Of a stretch of DNA of 64,000 nucleotides, positions 5,644 through 48,592 are shown in pieces. The notes under the pieces are model-generated. The model worked only from the letters and a program-made list of their open reading frames with translations, searched no databases and had not been told where the DNA came from. Numbering within the stretch: position 1 is the stretch's first letter; every line of letters starts with the position of its first letter. The position numbers and the translations under genes are program-made. This stretch comes from Shigella phage SSP1, in sequence record KY963424, one strand, 5' to 3'.

Positions 5644-7020
5644 ATGACTATTGATATTAATAAGCTGAAAGAAGAACTTGGTCTGGGTGATCTGGCTAAA
5701 TCTCTGGAAGGTCTGACCGCTGCTCAGAAAGCTGCTGAAGCTGAACGTATGCGTAAAGAGCAGGAAGAAAAAGAACTGGCCCGTATGAATGACCTGGTTT
5801 CTAAAGCAGTTGGCGAAGATCGTCAGAAACTGGAAGAAGCTCTGACTCTGGTTAAGTCTCTGGACGAGAAATCCAAGAAGAGCGCAGAACTGTTTGCACA
5901 GACTGTAGAAAAACAGCAGGAAACTATTGTTGGTCTCCAGGATGAAATTAAATCTCTGCTGGCAGCTCGTGAAGGACGTTCCTTCGTCGGTGATAGCGTA
6001 GCTAAAGCACTGTACGGTACTCAGGAAAACTTTGAAGATGAAGTTGAAAAACTGGTTCTGTTATCTTATGTAATGGAAAAAGGCGTATTCGAGACCGAGC
6101 ACGGTCAGAGACACCTGAAAGCTGTAAACCAGTCCTCTTCAGTAGAAGTTTCTAGTGAAAGCTATGAAACTATTTTCTCCCAGCGTATTATTCGTGACCT
6201 GCAGAAAGAACTAGTAGTTGGTGCTCTGTTTGAAGAACTGCCAATGTCCAGCAAAATTCTTACTATGCTGGTTGAACCAGATGCTGGTAAAGCTACTTGG
6301 GTAGATGCTAATACATATGGTACTGATGCTACTACTGGTAACGAAGTTAAAGGTGCTCTGACTGAAATTCAGTTCAAAACCTATAAACTGGCTGCTAAGT
6401 CCTTCATTACTGATGAAACTGAAGAAGATGCAATCTTCTCCCTGCTACCATTGCTGCGTAAGCGTCTGATTGAAGCACACGCTGTTTCTATCGAAGAAGC
6501 GTTTATGACTGGTGACGGTACTGGTAAGCCTAAGGGTCTGCTGAAACTGGCTGAAGGCGATAGTGCTAAAGTTATTACTGAAGCTAAAGCTGATGGTTCT
6601 GTTCTAGTAACTGCTAAAACTATCTCTAAACTGCGTCGTAAACTGGGCCGTCATGGTCTGAAACTGAGCAAACTGGTACTTATCGTATCTATGGATGCTT
6701 ACTACGATCTGCTGGAAGATGAAGAATGGCAGGATGTTGCCCAGGTTGGTAATGATGCTGTTAAACTGCAAGGTCAGGTTGGTCGTATTTACGGTCTGCC
6801 GGTTGTAGTTTCTGAGTTCTTCCCGGCTAAAGCTAACTCTGCAGAGTTCGCAGTTATTGTTTATAAAGATAACTTCGTAATGCCGCGTCAGCGTGCTGTT
6901 ACTGTTGAACGTGAGCGCCAAGCTGGTAAACAGCGTGATGCGTACTACGTTACTCAGCGTGTTAACCTGCAACGTTACTTCGAAAACGGCGTTGTATCTG
7001 GTGCTTACGCTGCATCTTAA
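5644..7020 (+). CDS. Major capsid protein precursor (HK97 fold)
   Basis: 458 aa (same length as T5 pb8 precursor); coiled-coil N-terminal scaffolding-like region followed by capsid domain; strongly host-optimised codon usage (CTG, CGT, GGT, GCT, AAA, GAA), unlike neighbours; followed by a strong intrinsic terminator. Confidence 0.85.
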   Translation: MTIDINKLKEELGLGDLAKSLEGLTAAQKAAEAERMRKEQEEKELARMNDLVSKAVGEDRQKLEEALTLVKSLDEKSKKSAELFAQTVEKQQETIVGLQDEIKSLLAAREGRSFVGDSVAKALYGTQENFEDEVEKLVLLSYVMEKGVFETEHGQRHLKAVNQSSSVEVSSESYETIFSQRIIRDLQKELVVGALFEELPMSSKILTMLVEPDAGKATWVDANTYGTDATTGNEVKGALTEIQFKTYKLAAKSFITDETEEDAIFSLLPLLRKRLIEAHAVSIEEAFMTGDGTGKPKGLLKLAEGDSAKVITEAKADGSVLVTAKTISKLRRKLGRHGLKLSKLVLIVSMDAYYDLLEDEEWQDVAQVGNDAVKLQGQVGRIYGLPVVVSEFFPAKANSAEFAVIVYKDNFVMPRQRAVTVERERQAGKQRDAYYVTQRVNLQRYFENGVVSGAYAAS

Positions 7021-32218: not shown

Positions 32219-32992
32219 TTAGTCGTCCAGATCGCTTGCAGCTTCTGTGTCAATACCTTTCTGGGAGCCTGCATTGCTATTACCAGATTTGGCATCATCA
32301 TCTTTATTCTCACGACCCTCCATGAAGGCTTGAATTGCTTCTTTCTGCTCTTCATAGGTAGGAACCGGATAGGTTTGTTCCAGAGAAGGAACTTTTTCGA
32401 ACTTAATGATGTCGCCATCTTCATCACACATAGCTTCACCGATCAGATCTACGTCTGCAGCATATTGCTTAGATTCTGCACTGTTAGGATCTTGCAGCTT
32501 AATCTGGAACTGCATAGCAGCAATCTGCTGTACATCATACTCAGTATCGAAACCTTTACCTTTTTTCTCGATAGAAATATCAATATCAAACGGAGTTGCC
32601 AGATTCAACTGCTTCATGATAGACTGGATGCCTTTCAGAATCGTAGCCTTGACTTCCATTACTTTCAGTTTGTTATCAGAACGGTCGATAACAAAAGCGA
32701 TATAGTTTTTCTTCGGTTTCAGCGGAACACGATTACCATCTTTATCCAGCTCTTTCTCGAAGAAGCCCATCTCATGAACCGGATCAGCTTTACCACGAAC
32801 AAAGCTCTCTTTGTCACGGTTAAAACGGAGGCATTCGAAAGGAGCTACGTTACCCTCTTTATTAGTCAGCCAATAGACATAACGTGGAAGAACACCAGAA
32901 ACGATACGAACACGAGTGATACCGTTGTTGAACTTCAGGAATTCGATTTTATCGTTAGAACCGCCAGTAGTTTCGCCCCAAGACTTAGCCAT
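32219..32992 (-). CDS. Hypothetical protein (T5 D11 position); possible ssDNA-binding protein with acidic C-terminus
   Basis: 257 aa; acidic C-terminal tail (...EAASDLDD) as in phage SSBs. Function is inferred only. Confidence 0.3.
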   Translation of the reverse strand: MAKSWGETTGGSNDKIEFLKFNNGITRVRIVSGVLPRYVYWLTNKEGNVAPFECLRFNRDKESFVRGKADPVHEMGFFEKELDKDGNRVPLKPKKNYIAFVIDRSDNKLKVMEVKATILKGIQSIMKQLNLATPFDIDISIEKKGKGFDTEYDVQQIAAMQFQIKLQDPNSAESKQYAADVDLIGEAMCDEDGDIIKFEKVPSLEQTYPVPTYEEQKEAIQAFMEGRENKDDDAKSGNSNAGSQKGIDTEAASDLDD

Positions 32993-37957: not shown

Positions 37958-37987
37958 ATTATACCAAATCTTTAAGCGATTCAGCAA
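37958..37987 (-). promoter_or_regulatory. sigma70 early promoter for DNA polymerase gene (overlaps primase stop)
   Basis: - strand: TTGCTG - 18 bp - TATAAT, AT-rich upstream; transcript leader contains a 9-bp inverted repeat (TTGGTAAGT/ACTTACCAA) just upstream of the SD. Confidence 0.55.
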
Positions 37988-38849
37988 CTAAAATTTCAAT
38001 ACGTTTTGCTAACATATCAATTTCATCTTTGTTTAAGTCACCTGGATCTTTGCCTTCTGGTAGAAGAAAGTTAGCAACTACAGGTGTTAAACGCGTTTTT
38101 GTACGAATTAATTTGGCCAATGCTTGTGCAGCTTTATTACCAGAAGCATCATTATCTAGTAAGATAACAACAACTTTAACACCAGCAATAATATAAGGAC
38201 TGAACTTATCTGCAATGTTATCTGGAGTGAACTGATGTGTACCAAAGCAGCAAGAAGCATAGTCTATACCATTATCCTCTAGGTTCAGCATATCAAAGAT
38301 ACCTTCAACTAGGATAAGAACTGGAGTATTATATCGTACAGGGAAAATCGGTGGTGAAACTTGTTTTGGTTTTACTAAGTATTTAGGAGGGGCAGAACTG
38401 TTTATAGAACGACCCAAAAATAGGATATTGCGTCCAACAGCATCTGTGATTGGGAATACAATTCTGCCTTCCCAGTCTGCTTGGTGTTGGAAAGCAAAAT
38501 ATTTCTTCAAGGTCTTAGAACTTATACCTCGGAAATCACCTTCGAAAAGGTAAGCAGATTCAGGAATTGCAAGATTCGTAGATCCATTCCTAATCTCTGA
38601 AATCTTTTTACGTACCTGCGATAGTCTTGGGGACTGTCGGTACTGAGTCTCATTAAAATAATGGTAAATGCTCGGTATACCTTTACCGAAGCCACAACTC
38701 AAGCAGTGCATAATACCTGTTTCAGGATCAATACGCAAACTTGGGTGTTTATCGTCATGATCTGGATTGAGACAACAGATGAGGATGTCCCCACCTGTGT
38801 CTTTATATTCAATGCCTTTCAGATCAAGTAGTTCTGTTATTCTACTCAT
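37959..38849 (-). CDS. DNA primase (DnaG-like: zinc-binding + TOPRIM)
   Basis: 296 aa; CHC2 zinc finger (CCLNPDHDDKHPSLRI ... CLSCGFGKG); TOPRIM acidic residues (LVEGIFDMLNLEDNGID, ILLDNDASG). Confidence 0.8.
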   Translation of the reverse strand: MSRITELLDLKGIEYKDTGGDILICCLNPDHDDKHPSLRIDPETGIMHCLSCGFGKGIPSIYHYFNETQYRQSPRLSQVRKKISEIRNGSTNLAIPESAYLFEGDFRGISSKTLKKYFAFQHQADWEGRIVFPITDAVGRNILFLGRSINSSAPPKYLVKPKQVSPPIFPVRYNTPVLILVEGIFDMLNLEDNGIDYASCCFGTHQFTPDNIADKFSPYIIAGVKVVVILLDNDASGNKAAQALAKLIRTKTRLTPVVANFLLPEGKDPGDLNKDEIDMLAKRIEILVAESLKDLV

Positions 38850-40369
38850 ATATCGCTGGCCTGTTCACCTGTTGAATTTTCAGCTTTGTCTTTCTTAGCA
38901 CGTTTAGGTTGAGCCGGCTTATCCTTCTCAATAGGGATAACGAACTCAGCTTCCATTTGAGATATATCTTCCATTGCTAGGTTGGTAGTGTTATCCATTC
39001 GCAGAGTTTCCCAGTTCATTTTAGGCATAAACTTCACGCTATCAGAAGAACGAGTCTTAACGAAGTCAAACATAATAGCACCTTGACCATTATCAGCTTT
39101 TGCAGCATTAAGATTAGCAGCCATGTCTGCGGAATCAAGAATCCCCTTTGACATACGTGTTCTACCATCTTGATCGATCTGGTAAGGAGCTACACCAGCC
39201 ACGTTATGTTTCTGGCAGATAGATTTGAAAGACGAGCTGACAACCATCTGTTCTTTCCAGTCATACATATCAATGGTTTTAGAGTCTGGAAGTCGGGTTT
39301 GGTTAATATAGTCCAGTAAAGCTACTGTAACTTTATCACCATATCTAGCAACTAATTTATTTAGTTCTACGTCAACTGTTGTAATGGACAGTTCAGGATC
39401 ATAAACAATAATCATAGGAGTATGTAGCTCATACCCTTCTATTAGTTTACTCTCCATATCGTAGAAATCACTCATCTTAGCCATTGTGTACTGTTTAACG
39501 AAGCTATCGAAAAGCTCTTCACCACCATTAAACATTCTAGCTCTAGTTCTGGCTAATCTCAACAGAGCTGCACCTTCTAGAGTATTATTACGCATTGCTA
39601 GTGCTGATACACCTGCTAACATGGCTAAATTACGCCTAAATACTTCATGTTCTTTCATCTCAATTGAGAAGTATGGAGCAATATCCCCATTCAAATATTG
39701 CTGAACCTGTATGTTTGAACAGATAATGGATTTACCAGTACCACGCCAACCACCAAGCAGTAACGTTTCTGTGCGAGCTAAACCAATTTGAGCGTCGAAC
39801 TCATTACAAATACCAAGAGCGATTAAGTTCAGTTTGGTATCTTCTTCTCTCTGGAAAATACGCATGTTATCTGCGTTGAATACTTTTCCAGTATTCGTTA
39901 CTTTCTCTTCTAATTTTAAGTGAAGGGAGGCAACTCGGTTGAGAATTTCTCCCTGATCCAGCATTGTTAAATCTTGAAGCACGTCTGTTTCTAGAAGCTT
40001 CAGGAATAAATCCTGTGTATATTCGGCTTCTAGGACTTCAAGTGCCTGTTCCATGCTCACTTCTGGAATTTGAGTGTTAGCTAAGACGACTAGAGCTTGA
40101 GAAAGGCGGGCGTTCCTATTAGCTTCAAGCATAAGTGCGTCAATGGACGGCATTGTGTTATATTTTTTATAATAATTCTGGACGGCTTGGTAAATTGAGG
40201 AGAAAGCGTCATTAAAATGATCTTTATGCAGTTTTGAGAATGTTTCCAATGCTATTTGCTTCTGTTCGGAAGCTAGAAGCATCTTCAACACTACAGCTTG
40301 CACGTTAAACAAGGTCATTCTCCTTTGCACGCTTTCGTGCCTTCTAAATGCAAAAAGGGGAAGGAGCAT
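38846..40369 (-). CDS. Replicative DNA helicase (DnaB-like)
   Basis: Walker A GGWRGTGKS, H1a FSIEM, Walker B VALLDYINQ, H4-like APYQIDQDGR. Start ambiguous: ATG 40367-40369 (inside a hairpin loop, preceded by GGGGAGG) or ATG 40316-40318. Confidence 0.7.
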   Translation of the reverse strand: MLLPLFAFRRHESVQRRMTLFNVQAVVLKMLLASEQKQIALETFSKLHKDHFNDAFSSIYQAVQNYYKKYNTMPSIDALMLEANRNARLSQALVVLANTQIPEVSMEQALEVLEAEYTQDLFLKLLETDVLQDLTMLDQGEILNRVASLHLKLEEKVTNTGKVFNADNMRIFQREEDTKLNLIALGICNEFDAQIGLARTETLLLGGWRGTGKSIICSNIQVQQYLNGDIAPYFSIEMKEHEVFRRNLAMLAGVSALAMRNNTLEGAALLRLARTRARMFNGGEELFDSFVKQYTMAKMSDFYDMESKLIEGYELHTPMIIVYDPELSITTVDVELNKLVARYGDKVTVALLDYINQTRLPDSKTIDMYDWKEQMVVSSSFKSICQKHNVAGVAPYQIDQDGRTRMSKGILDSADMAANLNAAKADNGQGAIMFDFVKTRSSDSVKFMPKMNWETLRMDNTTNLAMEDISQMEAEFVIPIEKDKPAQPKRAKKDKAENSTGEQASDI

Positions 40370-40383
40370 AGCCCCCTCCCCTT
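40346..40383 (-). terminator. Hairpin/terminator after the 4xHTH protein gene, overlapping the helicase translation start
   Basis: - strand: 12-bp stem (AAGGGGAGGGGG / CTCCTTCCCCTT, two G-U pairs) with loop CTATG containing an ATG, followed by TTTTGCATTT. Confidence 0.5.
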
Positions 40384-40400
40384 AGGTTTAATTTACCAGA

Positions 40401-41168
40401 TTATTCAGCAGCCGCAGCTTTTGCATCCAGTTTAGCACGCTTAGCGGCACCATCATAGTCCTTAGCAACCAGACCACGACGAGACAGCATAGATTTAACA
40501 CCACGCTCAGACTTACCAGTTTTCTCAGCGATCTCAGCAACAGTCATGTTAACCAGATCCAGACCTTCTAACAGATCTTCACGAGTTTTAGCACTTGAAG
40601 TTTCCTGTACCGGCATAGCAGCGATACGACCTTCACGAAGCAGGCTCAGAGCTTTACCACGGATCTGCTTAATATTGCGGCCGAAGTGAGCAGCGATAGC
40701 TTCAATAGTAGCACCAGCAACAACCTGATTAACAAAATCAGTTTCTTCATCCGGAGTGAAGGAACGAACAGCAGCAGCTTTTTCAGTTGGCTTAACAGAA
40801 GCGGTCATTTCCAGGCTCAGAATCTTACCCTGTACCTGCTTAGCACCGAACTGACCACCAGCTACAGCAGCAGCGATTTCAGCATAGGTATACTGACCAG
40901 CATGAGCGTTCAGGAAATCAACCAGTTCAGCTTCCTGCTCAGGAGTCCACGGGGATTTCTGTACTTCGTTAGCTTTCTGTACTTCAAAACCTTCTTTACG
41001 CAGTTTAGAGCCAACAGAGCGAGCAGTAACGTCTTTGCCAGTTTCAGCAGCCAGTTCAGTAGCGATAGCAGCTACTTGTTCTTGAGAGATTACAGCAACA
41101 CCCAGAGCAGTGGCTTTTGCTTTCAGAGACTCGGTTACACCTTCTACGTTCCAGTTCAGTTTAGACAT
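40401..41168 (-). CDS. DNA-binding protein with four tandem HTH-like repeats (T5 D5-like position, putative)
   Basis: 255 aa; four repeats resembling sigma70 region-4-type HTH (e.g. TIEAIAAHFGRNIKQIRGKALSLLREG; MTVAEIAEKTGKSERGVKSMLSRRGL); host-optimised codon usage. Confidence 0.45.
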   Translation of the reverse strand: MSKLNWNVEGVTESLKAKATALGVAVISQEQVAAIATELAAETGKDVTARSVGSKLRKEGFEVQKANEVQKSPWTPEQEAELVDFLNAHAGQYTYAEIAAAVAGGQFGAKQVQGKILSLEMTASVKPTEKAAAVRSFTPDEETDFVNQVVAGATIEAIAAHFGRNIKQIRGKALSLLREGRIAAMPVQETSSAKTREDLLEGLDLVNMTVAEIAEKTGKSERGVKSMLSRRGLVAKDYDGAAKRAKLDAKAAAAE

Positions 41169-41940
41169 TATTATTTTTCTCCAATAGTTCTTTAATCGAC
41201 AGGATTTCTATCCCATTCGTTTCGGCTTTCTTATAAGATGAGGAAGAACGTTTTGATTCATCCTCACAGATTAGGTATTTGACGTCTTTAGTAACGGATT
41301 TCTTAACCGTATACCCTAGACTTTCTAAATAGTTTGTTGCATCCGTTCTATTTGCAAAATCTTGCAAAGATCCGGTAATACATACCGCGATTCCGTTTGG
41401 CTGGGCAACTAATTCATCTGTAATTATGATATTAGCTTTTGCACCTCTGATACCAGTTGAGAATTTCCACGGTAGTTCGATAACATCCTTGCCTTGTGGG
41501 GAATTTAGCCAGGCTCTATAGTTTTCTCCAGCCTTGCCGTCAGCCTTCACATCGTGGAAGCTAGTGCAATTTTGGGATAATTTCTTTGCTGCAACCTCTC
41601 CAATTAGAGGGATTCCTAAAGAACCGAGAACTGAATCAAAGTCAATGTCTCCGCGAACTTTAGTATTTAATTCGCTAATTAACTTAGCGGCAACCTTGCT
41701 ACCCACGGCTCTAACCAAATCTTCTTCGGTTAGGTAAAACAGTTCTGAAATCTTCGTCAGCTCCAGCTTCTCAATAGTTTTTGGGCCAAAGCCCTTTAAC
41801 TTCATTTTTGTACAGAAGTTCTCAATTAACTTACTTGATTGCGCTGGACAGTTGGACTTATTCCGACAGAATAATTGTCCGTTGACAAGATCTAGCTTAG
41901 AACCACAAGAGGGACATTGTGTTGGAATTTCGATTTTCAT
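41161..41940 (-). CDS. lig: NAD-dependent DNA ligase, C-terminal part (Zn finger, HhH, BRCT) - separate ORF
   Basis: About 259 aa from ATG 41938-41940 (AAGGAAG SD); C4 zinc finger CPSCGSKLDLVNGQLFCRNKSNCPAQ, HhH region, BRCT-like C-terminus. Confidence 0.75.
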   Translation of the reverse strand: MKIEIPTQCPSCGSKLDLVNGQLFCRNKSNCPAQSSKLIENFCTKMKLKGFGPKTIEKLELTKISELFYLTEEDLVRAVGSKVAAKLISELNTKVRGDIDFDSVLGSLGIPLIGEVAAKKLSQNCTSFHDVKADGKAGENYRAWLNSPQGKDVIELPWKFSTGIRGAKANIIITDELVAQPNGIAVCITGSLQDFANRTDATNYLESLGYTVKKSVTKDVKYLICEDESKRSSSSYKKAETNGIEILSIKELLEKNNNV

Positions 41941-41970
41941 CAAATTTCTTCCTTATCAATTTATATAAAT

Positions 41971-41999
41971 ATTATAGCAAGTATTTAAGCATTTAGCAA
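41971..41999 (-). promoter_or_regulatory. sigma70 early promoter inside the gap between the two ligase ORFs
   Basis: - strand: TTGCTA - 17 bp - TATAAT with AT-rich upstream. Confidence 0.6.
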
Positions 42000-42142
42000 C
42001 TACAATTTTAACTAACTTTGCTTACCCTCGCCATAACTTTCTATCCCTCAACTGAATGATAATAGTATATACCTAAGCGGCGAAAATGTCAATAACCACT
42101 TTATAATTCCGATATGGTAGATGGGTAGCAAAGGGTTATGTA

Positions 42143-43114
42143 TTAATCGTATACTCGCTCTACTATGCACGGGATTACACCACCAGCACGAATTACTCGA
42201 ATCTGGCAACCGATCTCTAGATCAAGAGAGTTAATATAATCAACGTTATTAAGAGTCGCTTTAACAATTGTAGCATCATCAATAATTACCGGTTCGAAAT
42301 AACCAACTGGAGTTACTTTACCAGAAGCCCCTACCTGCCACTCAACTTTAGTAAGAGTTGTAATCTCGCCTTCTTCATCCTCTTTAATAGCGAATGCTCC
42401 ACGAGGGAATTTATTAGTCCAGCCTTCTCGGAAGAATTTGTTGTTGTCATTAATACGAACAACTTTACCGTCCGTCGGAATCCATTTAAAGAAGGAACGC
42501 ACATTAACAACTGTTAAGAAATCTTCATTCTCTAGCCAGAGCATATCTTTTAAATATGATTCTGTAATACCTACAGATTCAGCAGAACACTGGATACCAT
42601 ATGCAACGAAGATTAAACCACCTTCCCCGATACGTTGTACGAAATCATCGCTATCTTTGAGGTTAATAGCGCCAGAGGCAAAGTTACGTTTATTTTCTAC
42701 TTCTTTTGTAATTAGAACTTCACCAGTGATTTGAGTAGGTACTTTTTGGGAAATCTTTTGAGGGATATTTAGCAATCTTACGTTGCTTGTGACATCATTC
42801 CCTAGAATACCATTACCACGAGTTAGTGCTTGAACAAAATCTCCATTAATATATAACAGAGAAATCGCACAACCATCTAACTTATCAGTTTCTACCTGAC
42901 CTAATGGATTAAATGGAGGTTTATCTCCACGATTATAATAAACTTTCTGTAAAGAATACATACGATACAGATGTGGAATATCACCTTTAGGCCCGATCTC
43001 TTCTTCTAACGGAAATCTTTTAATCAGACGATCATATTCTTCGTCAGAGATTAAAGACATTCCCTGGTAATATGCTTCTTGACAACGTTTAATAAAGTCT
43101 TTTACATTAGTCAT
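42143..43114 (-). CDS. lig: NAD-dependent DNA ligase, N-terminal part (adenylation + OB domains) - separate ORF
   Basis: 323 aa; adenylation KxDG motif (KLDGCAISLLY) and following nucleotidyltransferase/OB-fold region typical of LigA; ends at a stop codon 199 bp upstream of the C-terminal ORF. Confidence 0.75.
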   Translation of the reverse strand: MTNVKDFIKRCQEAYYQGMSLISDEEYDRLIKRFPLEEEIGPKGDIPHLYRMYSLQKVYYNRGDKPPFNPLGQVETDKLDGCAISLLYINGDFVQALTRGNGILGNDVTSNVRLLNIPQKISQKVPTQITGEVLITKEVENKRNFASGAINLKDSDDFVQRIGEGGLIFVAYGIQCSAESVGITESYLKDMLWLENEDFLTVVNVRSFFKWIPTDGKVVRINDNNKFFREGWTNKFPRGAFAIKEDEEGEITTLTKVEWQVGASGKVTPVGYFEPVIIDDATIVKATLNNVDYINSLDLEIGCQIRVIRAGGVIPCIVERVYD

Positions 43115-43295
43115 TCATTTCTACCTGTAGTTCTTTATTATACTGAGTAGTGAGATCGGCTAACTCTTGCGCTTCTTTCAACCACGCATCTTTGTACGCT
43201 TTATCGTTGATTCCACCAAAGTTATCTAGATAGTTATTTCTAGCAGTTGATACTAGGTTTAACTTTGCTTGAATTTTTGGAAGTGTTATGTTCAT
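43107..43295 (-). CDS. Hypothetical small protein
   Basis: About 62 aa from ATG 43293-43295 (GAGAGGA SD); overlaps ligase start by 8 nt. Confidence 0.35.
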   Translation of the reverse strand: MNITLPKIQAKLNLVSTARNNYLDNFGGINDKAYKDAWLKEAQELADLTTQYNKELQVEMND

Positions 43296-43324
43296 AATTG
43301 ATCCTCTCATCAATTTATATAAAT

Positions 43325-43353
43325 ATTATATAACAAAACTGAGTTGAAAGCAA
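43325..43353 (-). promoter_or_regulatory. sigma70 early promoter
   Basis: - strand: TTGCTT - 17 bp - TATAAT; ATTTGCTTTCA -35 context; followed by GAGAGGA SD. Confidence 0.65.
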
Positions 43354-43360
43354 ATACATT

Positions 43361-43397
43361 TATAAAGAAAAAGCCAAGAACTAGGCATTCTTGGCTT
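43361..43397 (-). terminator. Rho-independent terminator after PC4-like gene
   Basis: - strand: 10-bp stem AAGCCAAGAA/TTCTTGGCTT, 7-nt loop, followed by TTTCTTTATA. Confidence 0.6.
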
Positions 43398-43689
43398 TTA
43401 GTTCTTCAGCTCGTTTCTGTACTTCATGTAAAACCTCAGATTCGCTAAGAATCTGTGTAAACGCATAGAAAAGCTGTGATGTTGTTTCTAGGGTGTAAGG
43501 AAAAGAGAAGCCAGATTTCGTTGGAAACCATTCATCATTAATATCAAGAAGCCAGTAACGAATACCCATGTATAGATTCCCACGAAATTCAGATACTGTT
43601 AATCTTACTTGTTCTCCCTCCTTCTCCCAAAGTATGATGGACTGGTCATCAACGTGTCCTTCATAGTTTTGATTTACCTGTTCGCTCAT
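43381..43689 (-). CDS. PC4-like ssDNA-binding protein (putative)
   Basis: 102 aa; pattern IILWEKEGEQVRLTVSEFRGNLYMGIRYW matches the PC4/YdbC-type fold signature; a PC4-like protein is known in T5. Confidence 0.5.
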   Translation of the reverse strand: MSEQVNQNYEGHVDDQSIILWEKEGEQVRLTVSEFRGNLYMGIRYWLLDINDEWFPTKSGFSFPYTLETTSQLFYAFTQILSESEVLHEVQKRAEELKAKNA

Positions 43690-43705
43690 TTACATATCCC
43701 AAATA

Positions 43706-43729
43706 CACAAAAAGCCCCATATAGGGGCT
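43706..43729 (-). terminator. Hairpin/terminator after hypothetical gene 43740-44036
   Basis: - strand: 6-bp GC stem (AGCCCC/GGGGCT) with 5-nt loop followed by TTTTGTG. Confidence 0.4.
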
Positions 43730-43739
43730 AATTGGTTTC

Positions 43740-44036
43740 TTATCGGCCTACTGGAGAAGCACGATCTAACTCTGATTGGAGGCTAGTCACACGACGGACT
43801 TTCTCGACAGGAATAAAACGGAAGCTATCATTAGTACGAGAGAAGACAAGGATCTCATCATCTTTCGCTTTACGAATACGTTCACGTTTAATACGCTCAG
43901 CCAGATATTTATCTTGGGCTGGATCAAATTCCATCGTACCCTGAAGGTACGTGGTTCCTTTCTGACGAAGTTTCTCGTAATGAAGATAAAACTCACCAAA
44001 TTTTTCACATTGTGCGATAATTTCAGCTTTGGTCAT
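43740..44036 (-). CDS. Hypothetical protein
   Basis: 98-aa ORF with AAGGAAT SD. Confidence 0.45.
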   Translation of the reverse strand: MTKAEIIAQCEKFGEFYLHYEKLRQKGTTYLQGTMEFDPAQDKYLAERIKRERIRKAKDDEILVFSRTNDSFRFIPVEKVRRVTSLQSELDRASPVGR

Positions 44037-44072
44037 AACTGTATTCCTTTTGTTGGTGGATTTATCTAAAAA

Positions 44073-44483
44073 TTACTTAGTGATAGCTCGGATTGCTTCT
44101 GCCAGATGAGCAGCTGCTTTACCGGTCAGTTTGTCGATAATTGCATCATCCAGAAAATCTGGTGCTAGGCCAGCATCAGAGAATGCTGAACGAAGATCGG
44201 CATGAGCTTGGGCTTTGGAAGTACGAGAACCACCAGAGGCTTTTTCTCCAGTAGATGCGCTAGATTTAGAAGCAGAGCCAGCAGCTTTCTTGATATACAA
44301 ACCTGCTTTAGTCAGCTTCATACGAAAACCGTTCGGAGTTACACCATTTTCCTGGGCAATTTCGCTAACAATTTCCATGCTAACACCGGGACGTTCATCC
44401 TCTGGGAATTGCTCCATACGAGCAACGTATTCGGAAGACATTTTTTCGAACAGTTCATCAGTCCACTGAGTTGGAGTAGTCAT
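44073..44483 (-). CDS. Putative DNA-binding protein (HTH-like repeats), highly expressed
   Basis: 136 aa; two HTH-like segments similar to the repeats in the 40401-41168 protein; host-optimised codon usage; AAGGAAAT SD. Confidence 0.4.
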   Translation of the reverse strand: MTTPTQWTDELFEKMSSEYVARMEQFPEDERPGVSMEIVSEIAQENGVTPNGFRMKLTKAGLYIKKAAGSASKSSASTGEKASGGSRTSKAQAHADLRSAFSDAGLAPDFLDDAIIDKLTGKAAAHLAEAIRAITK

Positions 44484-44540
44484 ATTTTATATTTCCTTAA
44501 TTAAGAATTAAACAGAATAGTTCTTTCAAACTATGAGAAT

Positions 44541-44569
44541 ATTATATCAAGAATTATAGAATTAAGCAA
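44541..44569 (-). promoter_or_regulatory. sigma70 early promoter
   Basis: - strand: TTGCTT - 17 bp - TATAAT with AT-rich upstream (AAAATTTCAG). Confidence 0.6.
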
Positions 44570-44589
44570 CTGAAATTTTTCGGTAATTG

Positions 44590-44844
44590 CTACACATCTA
44601 GTTCAACAATCTCCCAATCATCAGCCAGAGCCTCGTCTAGGGTAAGGTTTACTTGACGGATAAGCGGGGATTCCATACCGTTCTCCCACACATGTTCAGT
44701 CACTGTACCCTGCTCTACGTTAAATTCTAAAACCACTGTAAAGTGTTTATTGTTTTCCCAGCAATCTCGCTGGAGATATTTTACGTCCCCAGCTTTCAGC
44801 AAATCTGTTAGCTTACTCACGGCGTTTTCCTTTTTCTTTATCAA
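44590..44844 (-). CDS. Hypothetical protein
   Basis: 84-aa ORF. Confidence 0.35.
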   Translation of the reverse strand: MIKKKENAVSKLTDLLKAGDVKYLQRDCWENNKHFTVVLEFNVEQGTVTEHVWENGMESPLIRQVNLTLDEALADDWEIVELDV

Positions 44845-45517
44845 GTTTCAGGGCAGCCTTAACAGCTTCGTTAATCAACGTAATAATTTCTTCACGAGTC
44901 CATTTATATCCCAGAGATTTTACGTCAACCCCTAGCTTTTCCAGGTGTTTAACAGAAGCCAGCTCGTAATTCATATAATGGACGTTCTGTTGTTTGCCTT
45001 CTGATAGAAGCCATACACGGTAGCAACCAACAGGATTATCCATTGCTTTTTTGATTTCACCGATACACTGGTATCCAGGAACCCAAACAAGCTCACCAAC
45101 TGCAAATTCTTCTGCTACAGCATCATCAGGAATAATTGGAGGATTCAATGGATCTACAATATCGTTCAAACGAAGTAAAGCACCATAGCGTTCCAAAACT
45201 GATTTGACCATTGCTACAGAGCGATAATTACGATCAGCAATTTCTTCAAAAGAATCACCAGATAAATACTGCTCAATAACGTTAGCTAACTCAATGCCTT
45301 CAATGAGTGTGCCACGTTTCTTTTTCTTCATTTCGGCAACTTGGATCTGGCGGTCTTGCCATTCTTCAATCATCCTTTCCATAGTTGGATTGGATGATAC
45401 GCCGAGCATTTCACATGCTGCTTTCTTAGTACCACCGTTCTCCAGATGCTCTATAACTTTTTTAAAGACTTCATCCGGGATTTCATGGATATGTTTCTTT
45501 CTACGAGAACCAGCCAT
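44813..45517 (-). CDS. Putative HTH DNA-binding/regulatory protein
   Basis: 234 aa; N-terminal HTH-like segment (GGTKKAACEMLGVSSNPTMERMIEEW); GAGAGGAG SD. Confidence 0.4.
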   Translation of the reverse strand: MAGSRRKKHIHEIPDEVFKKVIEHLENGGTKKAACEMLGVSSNPTMERMIEEWQDRQIQVAEMKKKKRGTLIEGIELANVIEQYLSGDSFEEIADRNYRSVAMVKSVLERYGALLRLNDIVDPLNPPIIPDDAVAEEFAVGELVWVPGYQCIGEIKKAMDNPVGCYRVWLLSEGKQQNVHYMNYELASVKHLEKLGVDVKSLGYKWTREEIITLINEAVKAALKLDKEKGKRRE

Positions 45518-45585: not shown

Positions 45586-45828
45586 TTACGATTCCTTGAG
45601 CAAAGAAGCAAGTTCAGCATAGACTTTATCTAACTCAAAGCCGATGCGAAGAGACACGTTTGTTTTCCGTTGTTTAAGTAACCACTCGGATATGTTAGGG
45701 ATGCCAGCTAATCTATGCGGTACCACCCTACATAGCTTTTCCGAAGTGTCGTAAACAGGAACTTTACGTTCTTTTACTGGGAACTTCCTTGTTTCCCATT
45801 TTTTATTCTTCACTGTCATTTCTAGCAC
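45586..45828 (-). CDS. Hypothetical protein
   Basis: 80-aa ORF overlapping the 3' end of the large helicase gene. Confidence 0.35.
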   Translation of the reverse strand: MLEMTVKNKKWETRKFPVKERKVPVYDTSEKLCRVVPHRLAGIPNISEWLLKQRKTNVSLRIGFELDKVYAELASLLKES

Positions 45829-48592
45829 CTAGCTCTGCCATTGCTTCATCATGCATATGTTTCTCCTCGTCAGTCATAAACTTATATGGGATTGGCATAC
45901 ACTCGATTTTACAATAAGTTCTGTACCAGTCTACAATATTCTCCGTATTCATATCCTTACCAATACCCATCATACCAAGATACATTCTCGCATATTTTGG
46001 GTTAGCACTCTGACCTGTTTTAAGGAAGAAATCTTTCTTTTTACCTTTCAGAGCTTCTATGAATGGTTTGATAGTGACATTTGAACACTTCTTAATATCT
46101 TCCCAGAACATCTCGTGCATTTTATGGAAAAATGCCGCTCGATCATTCGGTTTATCCTTGATATATTGTTCAACATGCTCAACTGTTACATCTTTAATAG
46201 ACTCAAGATGATAGTAGCGAACAAGAAGTAGTTTAGCTTCATACGCATCTGCATGGCGTGGAGCACAATAATCAGGAGTTGAATACAAAATAGCTTTGAT
46301 TCGCTCTTCCGTATATTCCTTCCCAGCACCTTCGATAGTTCCCCAGCTTTCACTGAAAATATCAATAGTTGCACCCTGATCAAGCAAGTAATAACGTAAA
46401 GTACTAGTATAGTTCCTAGATTCCAGCTCCCTACGACGTGCGTATAATTGCTGTGCTAACTCCAGCCAACCTTCATCAATGTTATATTGCTCAGAACCTG
46501 CGGAGAATCCACTCGTAGATTTATCAATAAAATAATAAATGTTCTGAGCGCCACGGTCGCGCCTGATTGCTTGAAAACGCATGTTTGGCGCTTGGTTGCT
46601 GGTTCTAGTAATAACGAATACGTTATCAAAATAGTTGAAGTCAACACCACTAGTTACTGATGGACTACATAATAAGCAATCAATTTGTTGGTCAATTAGC
46701 TCATTAGTTGTGTAATCCAGAATACGTCTAATATCTACATCAGACGTAGAGTTTGAGTGGATTTCCTTAACTAACGCACCCGTATTACGACGCAACGCCA
46801 TGCCCTTCTCATTCAGTTCATCTGGACCACAGTCAGATACTAGGATAGATTTCTCACCCATCTCTAGAGAAGTCTGAAGTGCAACCCAAATACTGGATTC
46901 ATCAGGGAACTCATAAGCATGAGCTTTTGACAGCATTTTACGGTGGTGATTATAAAATGCAACCGGTTTATCAAAATCAATTAGAGAACCGTAGGCTTCA
47001 ATAGTCTCAGCACTAATATCACCATCGGATAAGATTACAGTTTTAGCTGTCATGAGGATGTCACGTAGAACTTGAATACACTCGCGACGTTGTTTAACAA
47101 CTGGGGCGAATAATAGATCATTCATTACAGCGTCACATTCATCAATAAAGATGGTGTCTATTTGACCAATAAAACTTTTGAACTTATGCAAAGAGTGAAT
47201 AGTTGTGGACATACGATCAATAGCTCCACGTTTAAAGTTGAGCATATCTACAGACTTATCATATTGTCCTGCGCTAAATTTCTTAGCGTTTGAAGATACC
47301 AGCGCTCTAGTATTTGTAACTGCTAAAAAGTTGCCAGGAAGAACCCCTGCGTCCAGCCATTTAGTTACTGCCGTAGTTTTACCAGTACCAAGACTTGCCT
47401 TAACAAATGTTATATGGCCCTTTGGGGGCACAATGTTAATCTTCAGGTATGGAACTTCTGGTGGAGAATCCACTTCTAATTTCTTGAGTGGAACACCCTT
47501 CAGATTTAATGGAATCTCACGTTTAGAATTATTAACAAACGCTTTGAGAGCCTGCTTACGACCGTTATTAAAGTAATCTTGAATATTACGACTGTTATCT
47601 TTAGTTGCAATATATTCAGATAAAGCGGGTTTAATCTCACGTTCTAGCCATGCGAAATCAACACCATCCTCTAATGCTCTATGGTATAGTTTGGGGATAA
47701 TACGCAAGTACACCCCATCATCAGCTTCTTCCAATTCGCTGATGGTTTCTTCTACTTTATCAGAAGCAATCTTTTTGCCTTTAATTTGATCAAGTAAAGA
47801 ATAAAACTCTTCCTTAAACTCCCCTCTAGTTGTTTCATAGTCAACCAGATTATTAGGCAAATTTACCTTCGAACCTTTAACATACACCAGACGTGGCTTA
47901 CTCTCCGCTTTAAACGGATCAACAATACCATCGCTAAATAAAGGGTCGGCAAAATAGTGAAGCTGGACAGATGAATAATAAGCTAAGTCGGCAATATCAA
48001 AACCGAATTTTTGCTTACTACTATCATTGATAGACGTAAATAGGAACTTTAACTGACCTTGAGTTACCTTGACGTTAGATTCTAGCATTAAGTGCATTCG
48101 GATACCTGGTTTTAGGCCAGCCGAAGACGATGCATGAGCAATAAACCCTGCATCAAGAGGAAACATGTCCTCACTAATACTATTCAACATCTTAATAATG
48201 TGGCGGGCCATACCTACAAGATTAAACTTGTCGTACCCACCGGTATCTATGATACCATCCACGTCCATAGCAATAATATTGCTAGGGTTGGATACATTAA
48301 AGTTACCTTTCTTACGTCGCACATTATTTTTAGGTGCAAGACATCGACCTCGTACCGCAACGATATGAGGGTCAGACGTTAAACGTCTCATAAGTGGTAA
48401 CATTTCGGCAAGGCTTTGCGGGTCATGCTCTTCTATTACATCAAATTTGAAGGGCATAGAAGCTGGTTTACCTTCTGGATGCTCTTTCGAGAATCGTTTG
48501 GCAAAGGTATAATCTTCCGCTTTGATTTCTCGCCAAATACCTGTTGCTAAATCACGAGAAAATCCGGCGTGACCTTGGAGGATAGAAAACAC
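45803..48592 (-). CDS. Large replication protein: N-terminal primase-polymerase-like region fused to an SF2 helicase-type ATPase (origin-binding-protein-like)
   Basis: 929 aa; GTG start 48590-48592 after CAGGAG SD; acidic MDVDGIIDTGG segment; Walker A ASLGTGKTT, Walker B IFIDECD, further helicase motifs (SDGD, TSGVD, QAIRRDRG). Confidence 0.55.
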   Translation of the reverse strand: MFSILQGHAGFSRDLATGIWREIKAEDYTFAKRFSKEHPEGKPASMPFKFDVIEEHDPQSLAEMLPLMRRLTSDPHIVAVRGRCLAPKNNVRRKKGNFNVSNPSNIIAMDVDGIIDTGGYDKFNLVGMARHIIKMLNSISEDMFPLDAGFIAHASSSAGLKPGIRMHLMLESNVKVTQGQLKFLFTSINDSSKQKFGFDIADLAYYSSVQLHYFADPLFSDGIVDPFKAESKPRLVYVKGSKVNLPNNLVDYETTRGEFKEEFYSLLDQIKGKKIASDKVEETISELEEADDGVYLRIIPKLYHRALEDGVDFAWLEREIKPALSEYIATKDNSRNIQDYFNNGRKQALKAFVNNSKREIPLNLKGVPLKKLEVDSPPEVPYLKINIVPPKGHITFVKASLGTGKTTAVTKWLDAGVLPGNFLAVTNTRALVSSNAKKFSAGQYDKSVDMLNFKRGAIDRMSTTIHSLHKFKSFIGQIDTIFIDECDAVMNDLLFAPVVKQRRECIQVLRDILMTAKTVILSDGDISAETIEAYGSLIDFDKPVAFYNHHRKMLSKAHAYEFPDESSIWVALQTSLEMGEKSILVSDCGPDELNEKGMALRRNTGALVKEIHSNSTSDVDIRRILDYTTNELIDQQIDCLLCSPSVTSGVDFNYFDNVFVITRTSNQAPNMRFQAIRRDRGAQNIYYFIDKSTSGFSAGSEQYNIDEGWLELAQQLYARRRELESRNYTSTLRYYLLDQGATIDIFSESWGTIEGAGKEYTEERIKAILYSTPDYCAPRHADAYEAKLLLVRYYHLESIKDVTVEHVEQYIKDKPNDRAAFFHKMHEMFWEDIKKCSNVTIKPFIEALKGKKKDFFLKTGQSANPKYARMYLGMMGIGKDMNTENIVDWYRTYCKIECMPIPYKFMTDEEKHMHDEAMAELGARNDSEE

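Follow-up and report, generated by a model that had tools for sequence, protein, structure and literature searches.

The 64,000-nucleotide stretch of Shigella phage SSP1 analysed here (sequence record KY963424, hereafter called the window) carries at positions 40401-41168, on the minus strand, an open reading frame (ORF) that is gene D5 of the T5-like phages, a classical and named phage gene. Its product has the same length as D5 of phage T5 (T5.118, YP_006946.1) and is identical to it at 253 of 255 positions, the only two substitutions being A25D and T37A, and a match to phrog_323, “transcriptional regulator, D5-like” (E 2.7e-71), covers residues 1-253. The gene lies between ligB (upstream) and the gene of a DnaB-like helicase (downstream; D6 in T5), and the same order is found in T5 and in phage S124, so that both the full-length homology to T5 D5 and the kept position (ligB - D5 - DnaB-like helicase - primase - polymerase) place the ORF in the D5 family. 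The neighbourhood corresponds to the T5 early replication cluster, with primase, the DnaB-like helicase, a split NAD-dependent ligase (ligB, ligA), a PC4-like protein, D3, D2 and the origin-binding protein. Salmonella phage HMD-P4 has 99.1% identity over the region 40000-44600, which matches 521 phage records, nearly all of them T5-like (Tequintavirus and relatives, family Demerecviridae). According to the T5 RefSeq note, D5 binds DNA, is necessary for replication and late transcription, and takes part in the shutoff of expression; PMC12630848 cites McCorquodale et al. 1979 as the primary reference on these roles. A preliminary description of this DNA, made from its letters alone, had proposed a role in the early-to-late transcription switch, which agrees with the orthology to T5 D5, annotated as needed for late transcription and shutoff. 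The DRT4 paper was set aside as a source on D5, its subject being T5 ORF55. The gene, the DNA-binding nature of its product and the helix-turn-helix (HTH) fold were already known, and the module anatomy, the paralogy with D3 and the argument from expression level that are reported below are modest refinements.

The preliminary description had also seen four repeats of roughly 40 amino acids in the product and had made them depend on statistical support, which was found. In the single-sequence repeat test, off-diagonal Smith-Waterman self-alignment of D5 gave a score of 73, while 200 shuffles gave 38.1 ± 6.8 and none of them reached 73; the best self-alignment laid residues 29-183 on residues 92-235, which means a shift of one unit. 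For profile comparison, the family alignment of 46 homologues (50-80% identical) was cut into the segments R1 to R4, and the hhalign nulls were, for each pair, the reversed profile and 30 permutations of the columns. All 10 profile pairs among R1, R2, R3, R4 and the N-terminus of D3 exceeded every control. The pair R2-R3 (probability 96.2%, E 2.7e-9) had the highest z value, 18.6, followed by R1-D3 N-terminus (15.8), R4-D3 N-terminus (14.5), R1-R4 (10.4, with a probability of 74%), R1-R3 (7.1), R1-R2 (6.8), R3-R4 (6.7), R3-D3 N-terminus (6.4), R2-R4 (3.9) and R2-D3 N-terminus (3.2). From the pattern of these values, the profiles indicate two module subtypes, A for R1, R4 and the D3 N-terminus and B for R2 and R3, which gives the order A-B-B-A in D5. 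The four homologous tandem modules of D5 are real, but the repeat length first given has to be corrected: the units are residues 1-70, 71-134, 135-194 and 195-238, with a period of about 60 amino acids and a core of 40-50.

An AlphaFold2 (AF2) model of D5 was built with the 46-sequence alignment, and it had a mean predicted local distance difference test score (pLDDT) of 94 and a predicted template modelling score (pTM) of 0.54. The modules are individually predicted with confidence, but their mutual arrangement is uncertain because the pTM is only 0.54. Structure prediction had been proposed as a check in the preliminary description, and it gave a confident HTH fold; D5 has the three-helix bundle, the HTH and the basic recognition helix that define such proteins. 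Modules 1-3 are three-helix bundles in the model, and module 4 has the two HTH helices only, without helix 1, preceded by a confident non-helical stretch. The charges are distributed in a similar way per module, about −4 in the first helix, −1 to −3 in the second and +2 to +4 in the third. The residues that are invariant in the 46 homologues are concentrated in the third helices (R50/K55/R57, Q113/G114/K115, G171/K172 and G223/R230/R231); L117 in module 2 and L174 in module 3 are invariant as well. Several modules also gave weak Pfam matches, module 1 to the winged-HTH model HTH_33 (residues 32-68), module 2 to Myb_DNA-binding (71-100, below threshold) and module 3 to HTH_23 (151-184, below threshold). 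After module 4 comes a basic helix, in whose region G240 is invariant and D237 and K246 are nearly invariant, and this C-terminal helix is a candidate element for protein-protein contact or cooperativity. No solved structure of D5 or D3 was present in the PDB sequences searched.

The preliminary description had assigned two of these repeats to the shorter ORF at 44073-44483, but only one related module was found in its product, D3, and it lies in the N-terminal part. By hhalign, this D3 N-terminus matched R1 with a probability of 84-91% and R4 with 89%, and among all 332 ORFs of the window the D3 N-terminus and the D5 modules were reciprocal best non-self matches of hidden Markov models (HMMs), with E of 8e-4 to 6e-3. 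In the AF2 model of D3 (pLDDT 74), a disordered linker (residues 67-86, pLDDT <50) precedes a C-terminal domain. This C-terminal domain had no detectable relation to the D5 modules or to the D3 N-terminus in hhalign (probability <0.3%), so it was rejected at sequence level as a second D5-type repeat. PF26822 appears among the precomputed Pfam matches of several D5 homologues and several D3 homologues, and it may be a recently built family that covers the module common to both. The N-terminus of the D2 helicase (44813-45517) also has HTH-like stretches, with sub-threshold Pfam matches to HTH_28 (79-113) and HTH_23 (21-42). D2 as a third carrier of the module is unproven, with a BLAST match to D5 module 4 at E 1e-4 and module HMM matches at E 0.17-0.72 in the window. 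The features of the locus are collected in Table 1.

Table 1 Features of the D5 locus and of the paralogous D3 gene in the window
Feature	Position	Strand	Description
D5 gene, orthologue of T5 T5.118	40401..41168	(-)	255 aa, 27.07 kDa, pI 6.8
Module 1, subtype A by profile (aa 1-70)	40959..41168	(-)	predicted helices 11-22, 29-43, 49-58, short strand; recognition helix ARSVGSKLRK, net +4
Module 2, subtype B by profile, Myb-like (aa 71-134)	40767..40958	(-)	start W-T-P-E-Q-E; predicted helices 76-88, 95-101, 109-118; recognition helix AKQVQGKILS
Module 3, subtype B by profile (aa 135-194)	40587..40766	(-)	start F-T-P-D-E-E; predicted helices 139-150, 155-162, 166-178; recognition helix IKQIRGKALSLLR, net +4
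Module 4, subtype A by profile, sigma70 region 4.2-like HTH (aa 195-238)	40455..40586	(-)	predicted helices 210-217, 221-231; recognition helix ERGVKSMLSRR, net +3
C-terminal basic helix (aa 239-255, YDGAAKRAKLDAKAAAAE)	40404..40454	(-)	AF2 helix 240-254
D3 gene (136 aa), paralogue with one D5-type module	44073..44483	(-)	134/136 identical to T5 D3; phrog_1725 “DNA binding protein”
D3 N-terminal module, subtype A by profile (aa 1-68)	44280..44483	(-)	predicted helices 9-24, 28-45, 50-59
D3 C-terminal three-helix domain (aa 87-136)	44076..44225	(-)	from AF2; invariant DKLTGKAA motif (alignment)
ligB (NAD-dependent ligase subunit B)	41161..41943	(-)	stop overlaps D5 start, 8 nt
Two sigma70-type promoter-like sites 5' of ligB	41971..42092	(-)	TTGACA-17-TATACT; TTGCTA-17-TATAAT with extended TG
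Terminator-like hairpin	40355..40383	(-)	18 nt past D5 stop; 13-bp stem, 8 G-C pairs, then TTTTTGC (consensus scan)

The likeness of the modules to known HTH families was then compared. In the preliminary description each repeat resembled a sigma70 region-4-type HTH, but only module 4 exceeded the threshold of Pfam Sigma70_r4_2, with 28.6 bits (cut-off 25.7) at residues 204-230; 38 of the 46 members of the D5 family matched this model as well. The match is partial, since it covers model positions 23-49 of 54 (27/54 positions), over the HTH core. Against Sigma70_r4, module 4 reached 17.3 (cut-off 24.1), and modules 1-3 had no sigma70 region 4 match, modules 2 and 3 being Myb/HTH_23-like and module 1 weakly winged-HTH-like. 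Other sigma regions are absent from D5: Pfam gave no region 2, and Sigma70_r3 scored 20.6, below its cut-off of 25.3, on the same HTH as module 4. The best structural match of both D5 and D3 was the DNA-binding domain of GcrA from Caulobacter crescentus (PDB 5yiu), and the GcrA chain matched by D5 consists of this 49-residue domain only, matched across 47 residues. GcrA is a sigma70-associated regulator. The N-terminal GcrA-type DNA-binding fold is present in D5, but a match to Pfam PF07750 and a counterpart of the C-terminal sigma70-interacting domain of GcrA are not, and D5 has four modules where GcrA has one. The Pfam GcrA model gave no match at E<=1 in D5, D3 or the 28 module sequences, HMMER searches with D5, module and D3 profiles found no GcrA among the PDB sequences, and sub-threshold Pfam GcrA matches occurred only in distant D5 relatives. 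A link between D5 and GcrA at sequence level was therefore rejected, there being no match among the PDB sequences or to the Pfam model.

Modules 2 and 3 resemble the Myb/SANT repeats (c-Myb R1R2R3, SNAPC4) in that they begin with W/F-[ST]-x-x-E-E and form tandem three-helix bundles, and weak profile matches of these modules to c-Myb, MYB21 and SNAPC4 were obtained. The principle in common is that several HTHs of one chain read successive major grooves. However, the regular tryptophan triad is missing in D5, which keeps the first aromatic only (W74/F137), D5 belongs to a bacteriophage context, and its scores stay under the Pfam thresholds. For Myb_DNA-binding the score was 17.5 bits against 24.4, and 9 of 46 homologues matched at E<=1e-3, so D5 was not counted as a member. 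Modules 1 and 4 are like the GcrA DNA-binding domain or a winged HTH, and modules 2 and 3 are Myb/homeodomain-like.

As a proxy for abundance, we calculated the effective number of codons (Nc) and codon fractions for the 55 gene-like ORFs of the window. The Nc of D5, 31.1, was the lowest of all 55 (median 44.7), which means the strongest codon bias, and CTG made up 89% of its Leu codons (median 13%). Ranked by codon bias, D5 was followed by the major head protein (5644-7020), D3 (44073-44483) and the single-stranded DNA-binding protein D11 (32219-32992). In their codons the two small HTH proteins, D5 and D3, resemble structural proteins. As an indirect proxy, codon bias implies very high expression of D5. 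The ribosome-binding site GGAG lies some 9 nt before the D5 start codon. A consensus scan and the T5 annotation put both promoter-like sites 5' of ligB at the positions of the T5 promoters P-K28b and P-K28a, and they would drive an early unit of ligB and D5, which the terminator-like hairpin would close. Taken together, the strong codon bias, the predicted strong promoters and the terminator-like hairpin bracketing ligB-D5 point to stoichiometric rather than catalytic amounts of D5. In Yersinia phage phiR2-01, the D5 orthologue was among the most abundant proteins of virion preparations (PMC8624392). The hairpin also covers the first ATG (40369) in the ORF of the DnaB-like helicase (507 aa), and the annotated helicase start varies among relatives, T5 D6 having 502 aa and the protein of phage S124 having 402 aa.

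A preprint of July 2026 reported that D5 triggers the type IX retron-Kva2, that T5 D5 is monomeric in mass photometry, at 26 kDa, and that D5 alone is toxic in E. coli (bioRxiv 10.64898/2026.07.11.737809). The AlphaFold3 model of that preprint has D5 binding the stem-loop of the retron msDNA through an HTH motif, and the phages escaping the retron carried D5 G53D, W74*, V149I and G232D, D3 E30Q and G85D, and D2 E76Q (same preprint); tandem repeats or four modules of D5 are not mentioned in its main text. On our module map, the escaper positions G53 and G232 are nearly invariant and lie in or beside helix 3 of module 1 and of module 4, and W74 is the first residue of module 2. Few genes have a genetic link to the T5 early-to-late switch, and D5 is among them. 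Its four modules of two subtypes, its probably structural amounts and the one module common to D3 provide handles for experiments, and they bear on which helix the retron senses, on the separation of shut-off modules from replication modules, and on a possible competition between D3 and D5.

On balance we think it probable that D5 is an abundant early protein which coats duplex phage DNA through its four modules and acts on the early/late switch in an architectural way. Four basic recognition helices per chain, as modelled, fit binding to extended DNA. The four recognition helices of one D5 monomer would enter major grooves that follow one another, so that several helical turns are covered, and in capsid-like amounts D5 could coat the phage DNA with little sequence specificity. 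This histone-like coat would occlude the strong early sigma70 promoters and would ready the template for replication-coupled late transcription, and D5 would then not work on RNA polymerase as an attached subunit or mimic. D3, which is probably made in similar amounts, may join D5 on this DNA as a partner with a single module, or compete with it there. Biochemical work of 1979 (Rice et al., J Biol Chem) reportedly found cooperative, non-specific binding of D5 to double-stranded DNA. The phage proteins phi29 p6 and SPO1 TF1, which are early, very abundant, bind double-stranded DNA and are needed for replication and for temporal control of transcription, are the closest functional analogy to the role proposed for D5. 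Their folds are unrelated to that of D5, TF1 being HU-like and p6 having its own fold, and both work in dimeric or multimeric form; D5, by contrast, carries its four DNA-binding modules within one monomer. A bolder form of the proposal, which we regard as doubtful, is that D5 as four-module coat and D3 as one-module partner would make up a two-component phage “chromatin” of one GcrA-like HTH module in capsid-like amounts, whose occupancy of replicating T5 DNA would turn sigma70 early promoters off and late promoters on, and whose DNA-binding surface would be the one sensed by retrons.

Several points weigh against a D5 coat. D5 is neutral overall (pI 6.8), an uncommon property in a protein that coats DNA non-specifically, and its strongly conserved recognition helices fit sequence-specific binding equally well. 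With a pTM of 0.54, the model leaves it uncertain how the modules are spaced and oriented and whether they can jointly reach one duplex, and the estimate of abundance depends on codon bias, which is only an indirect measure of it. In addition, the retron escaper with D5 W74* still forms plaques (bioRxiv 10.64898/2026.07.11.737809), which is hard to reconcile with an essential coat, unless the changes lie in separate genomes, the stop is read through, or an N-terminal fragment is sufficient.

The same conserved helices lead to another explanation, that D5 is a sequence-specific transcription factor whose four HTHs read a long composite operator, much as paired domains and Myb repeats in tandem do. 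These operators would serve repression at early promoters, activation at late ones, or both. We consider this unlikely. Conservation within D5 is highest in the recognition helices, tandem Myb, paired and Tc3 HTH arrays are among the structural matches, the T5 early promoters have a common and distinctive ATATT discriminator (PMC7472727), and in the AlphaFold3 model of the preprint D5 engages one msDNA stem-loop and was the sole tested candidate predicted to bind. However, a codon bias at or above that of the capsid protein suggests amounts far over the needs of operators, D5 is also needed for DNA replication, and no repeated candidate operator was identified, none having been searched for.

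A direct action of D5 on RNA polymerase appears improbable. By this explanation, module 4 would mimic sigma70 region 4 (an AsiA-like appropriation), or D5 would be a GcrA-like cofactor on the sigma70 holoenzyme that redirects it to late promoters. The match of module 4 over the Sigma70_r4_2 threshold, found in most homologues, and the GcrA DNA-binding domain as top structural match of D5 and D3 are in favour of it, as are distant relatives in which an N-terminus containing GerE/sigma70-r4 is fused to tandem D5-like repeats. Furthermore, all T5 gene classes use sigma70, and the early-to-late switch has been described as unexplained (PMC7472727). But when RNA polymerase was purified from T5-infected cells at 3, 15 and 25 min, gpA1, a fragment of the capsid protein pb8 and gpT5.026 were found, not D5, and the associated proteins of earlier studies had 60, 11, 90 and 15 kDa, so that D5 with 27 kDa is not among them (PMC7472727). 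D5 also has no sigma-interacting element, and sigma70 regions 2 and 3, with which region 4 occurs in sigma proteins, were not found in it. The mimicry of sigma region 4 on RNA polymerase that the preliminary description had suggested is thus not supported, as only one module resembles region 4.2, over the bare HTH, and D5 is absent from the polymerase preparations. Because the codon bias is strong and D5 is absent from these preparations, a stoichiometric coating of several grooves is favoured over sigma mimicry.

The idea that D5 is no true repeat protein, and that its helical, alanine-rich segments resemble one another by chance, is refuted: the direct pairwise identity between D5 modules is low, a BLASTP self-comparison of D5 yields the diagonal only and R2 against R4 had an hhalign probability of 4%, but the shuffle, reversal and column-permutation controls were all beaten, the fold and charge pattern recur in each unit, and in the natural variant P0173 (309 aa, A-B-B-B-A) there is one additional copy of module 2.

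Another variant, P0246, has five modules. The exhaustive profile search gave 506 cluster representatives at E<=1e-3, of which 75 reached E<=1e-30, and nearly all of these 75 had 230-260 aa, which means that the architecture of four modules is conserved. Full-length matches to D5 in the viral structure library were D5 orthologues only. Longer arrays were also seen among distant relatives. P0311 (L007 1283-3082), on a short metagenome contig, has 599 aa with about 11 tandem HTH units of about 50 aa (Pfam HTH_7, HTH_23), and it adjoins a 405-aa gene with a weak Sigma70_r4 match. In P0302, P0298, P0316 and P0318, an N-terminus containing GerE/Sigma70_r4 is followed by 2-5 tandem D5-like HTH units; the P0302-type N-terminus looks ECF-sigma-like by eye, while Pfam gave GerE and Sigma70_r4 only, not region 2. 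The P0302 sites (L004 2579-4099, L005 3396-4916 and L006 1197-2717) are on marine, phage-like contigs with many small ORFs and a dNMP kinase. These fusions hint at a possible physical link between D5-like arrays and a protein of the sigma type.

Some smaller observations concern the cluster around D5. The 102-aa product of 43381-43689 (minus strand) matched Pfam PC4, a eukaryotic-type transcriptional coactivator, with 32.1 bits (cut-off 25) and corresponds to T5.115, “transcriptional regulator”, so a PC4-like single-stranded-DNA-binding fold is also encoded within the early cluster of D5. A comparison of 37959-40369 and 45586-48592 with T5 showed that the T5 HNH homing endonuclease genes hegJ (in the gap between D6 and primase) and hegI (after the origin-binding protein gene) are absent from the window, in which the helicase ORF directly adjoins the primase ORF. 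Finally, three fragments (P0019, P0038 and P0151) that are 98-100% identical to T5-like D5/D3 stand at NCBI under the name “hypothetical protein, partial [Enterococcus faecalis]”, and they are most likely T5-like phage contamination of the assemblies.
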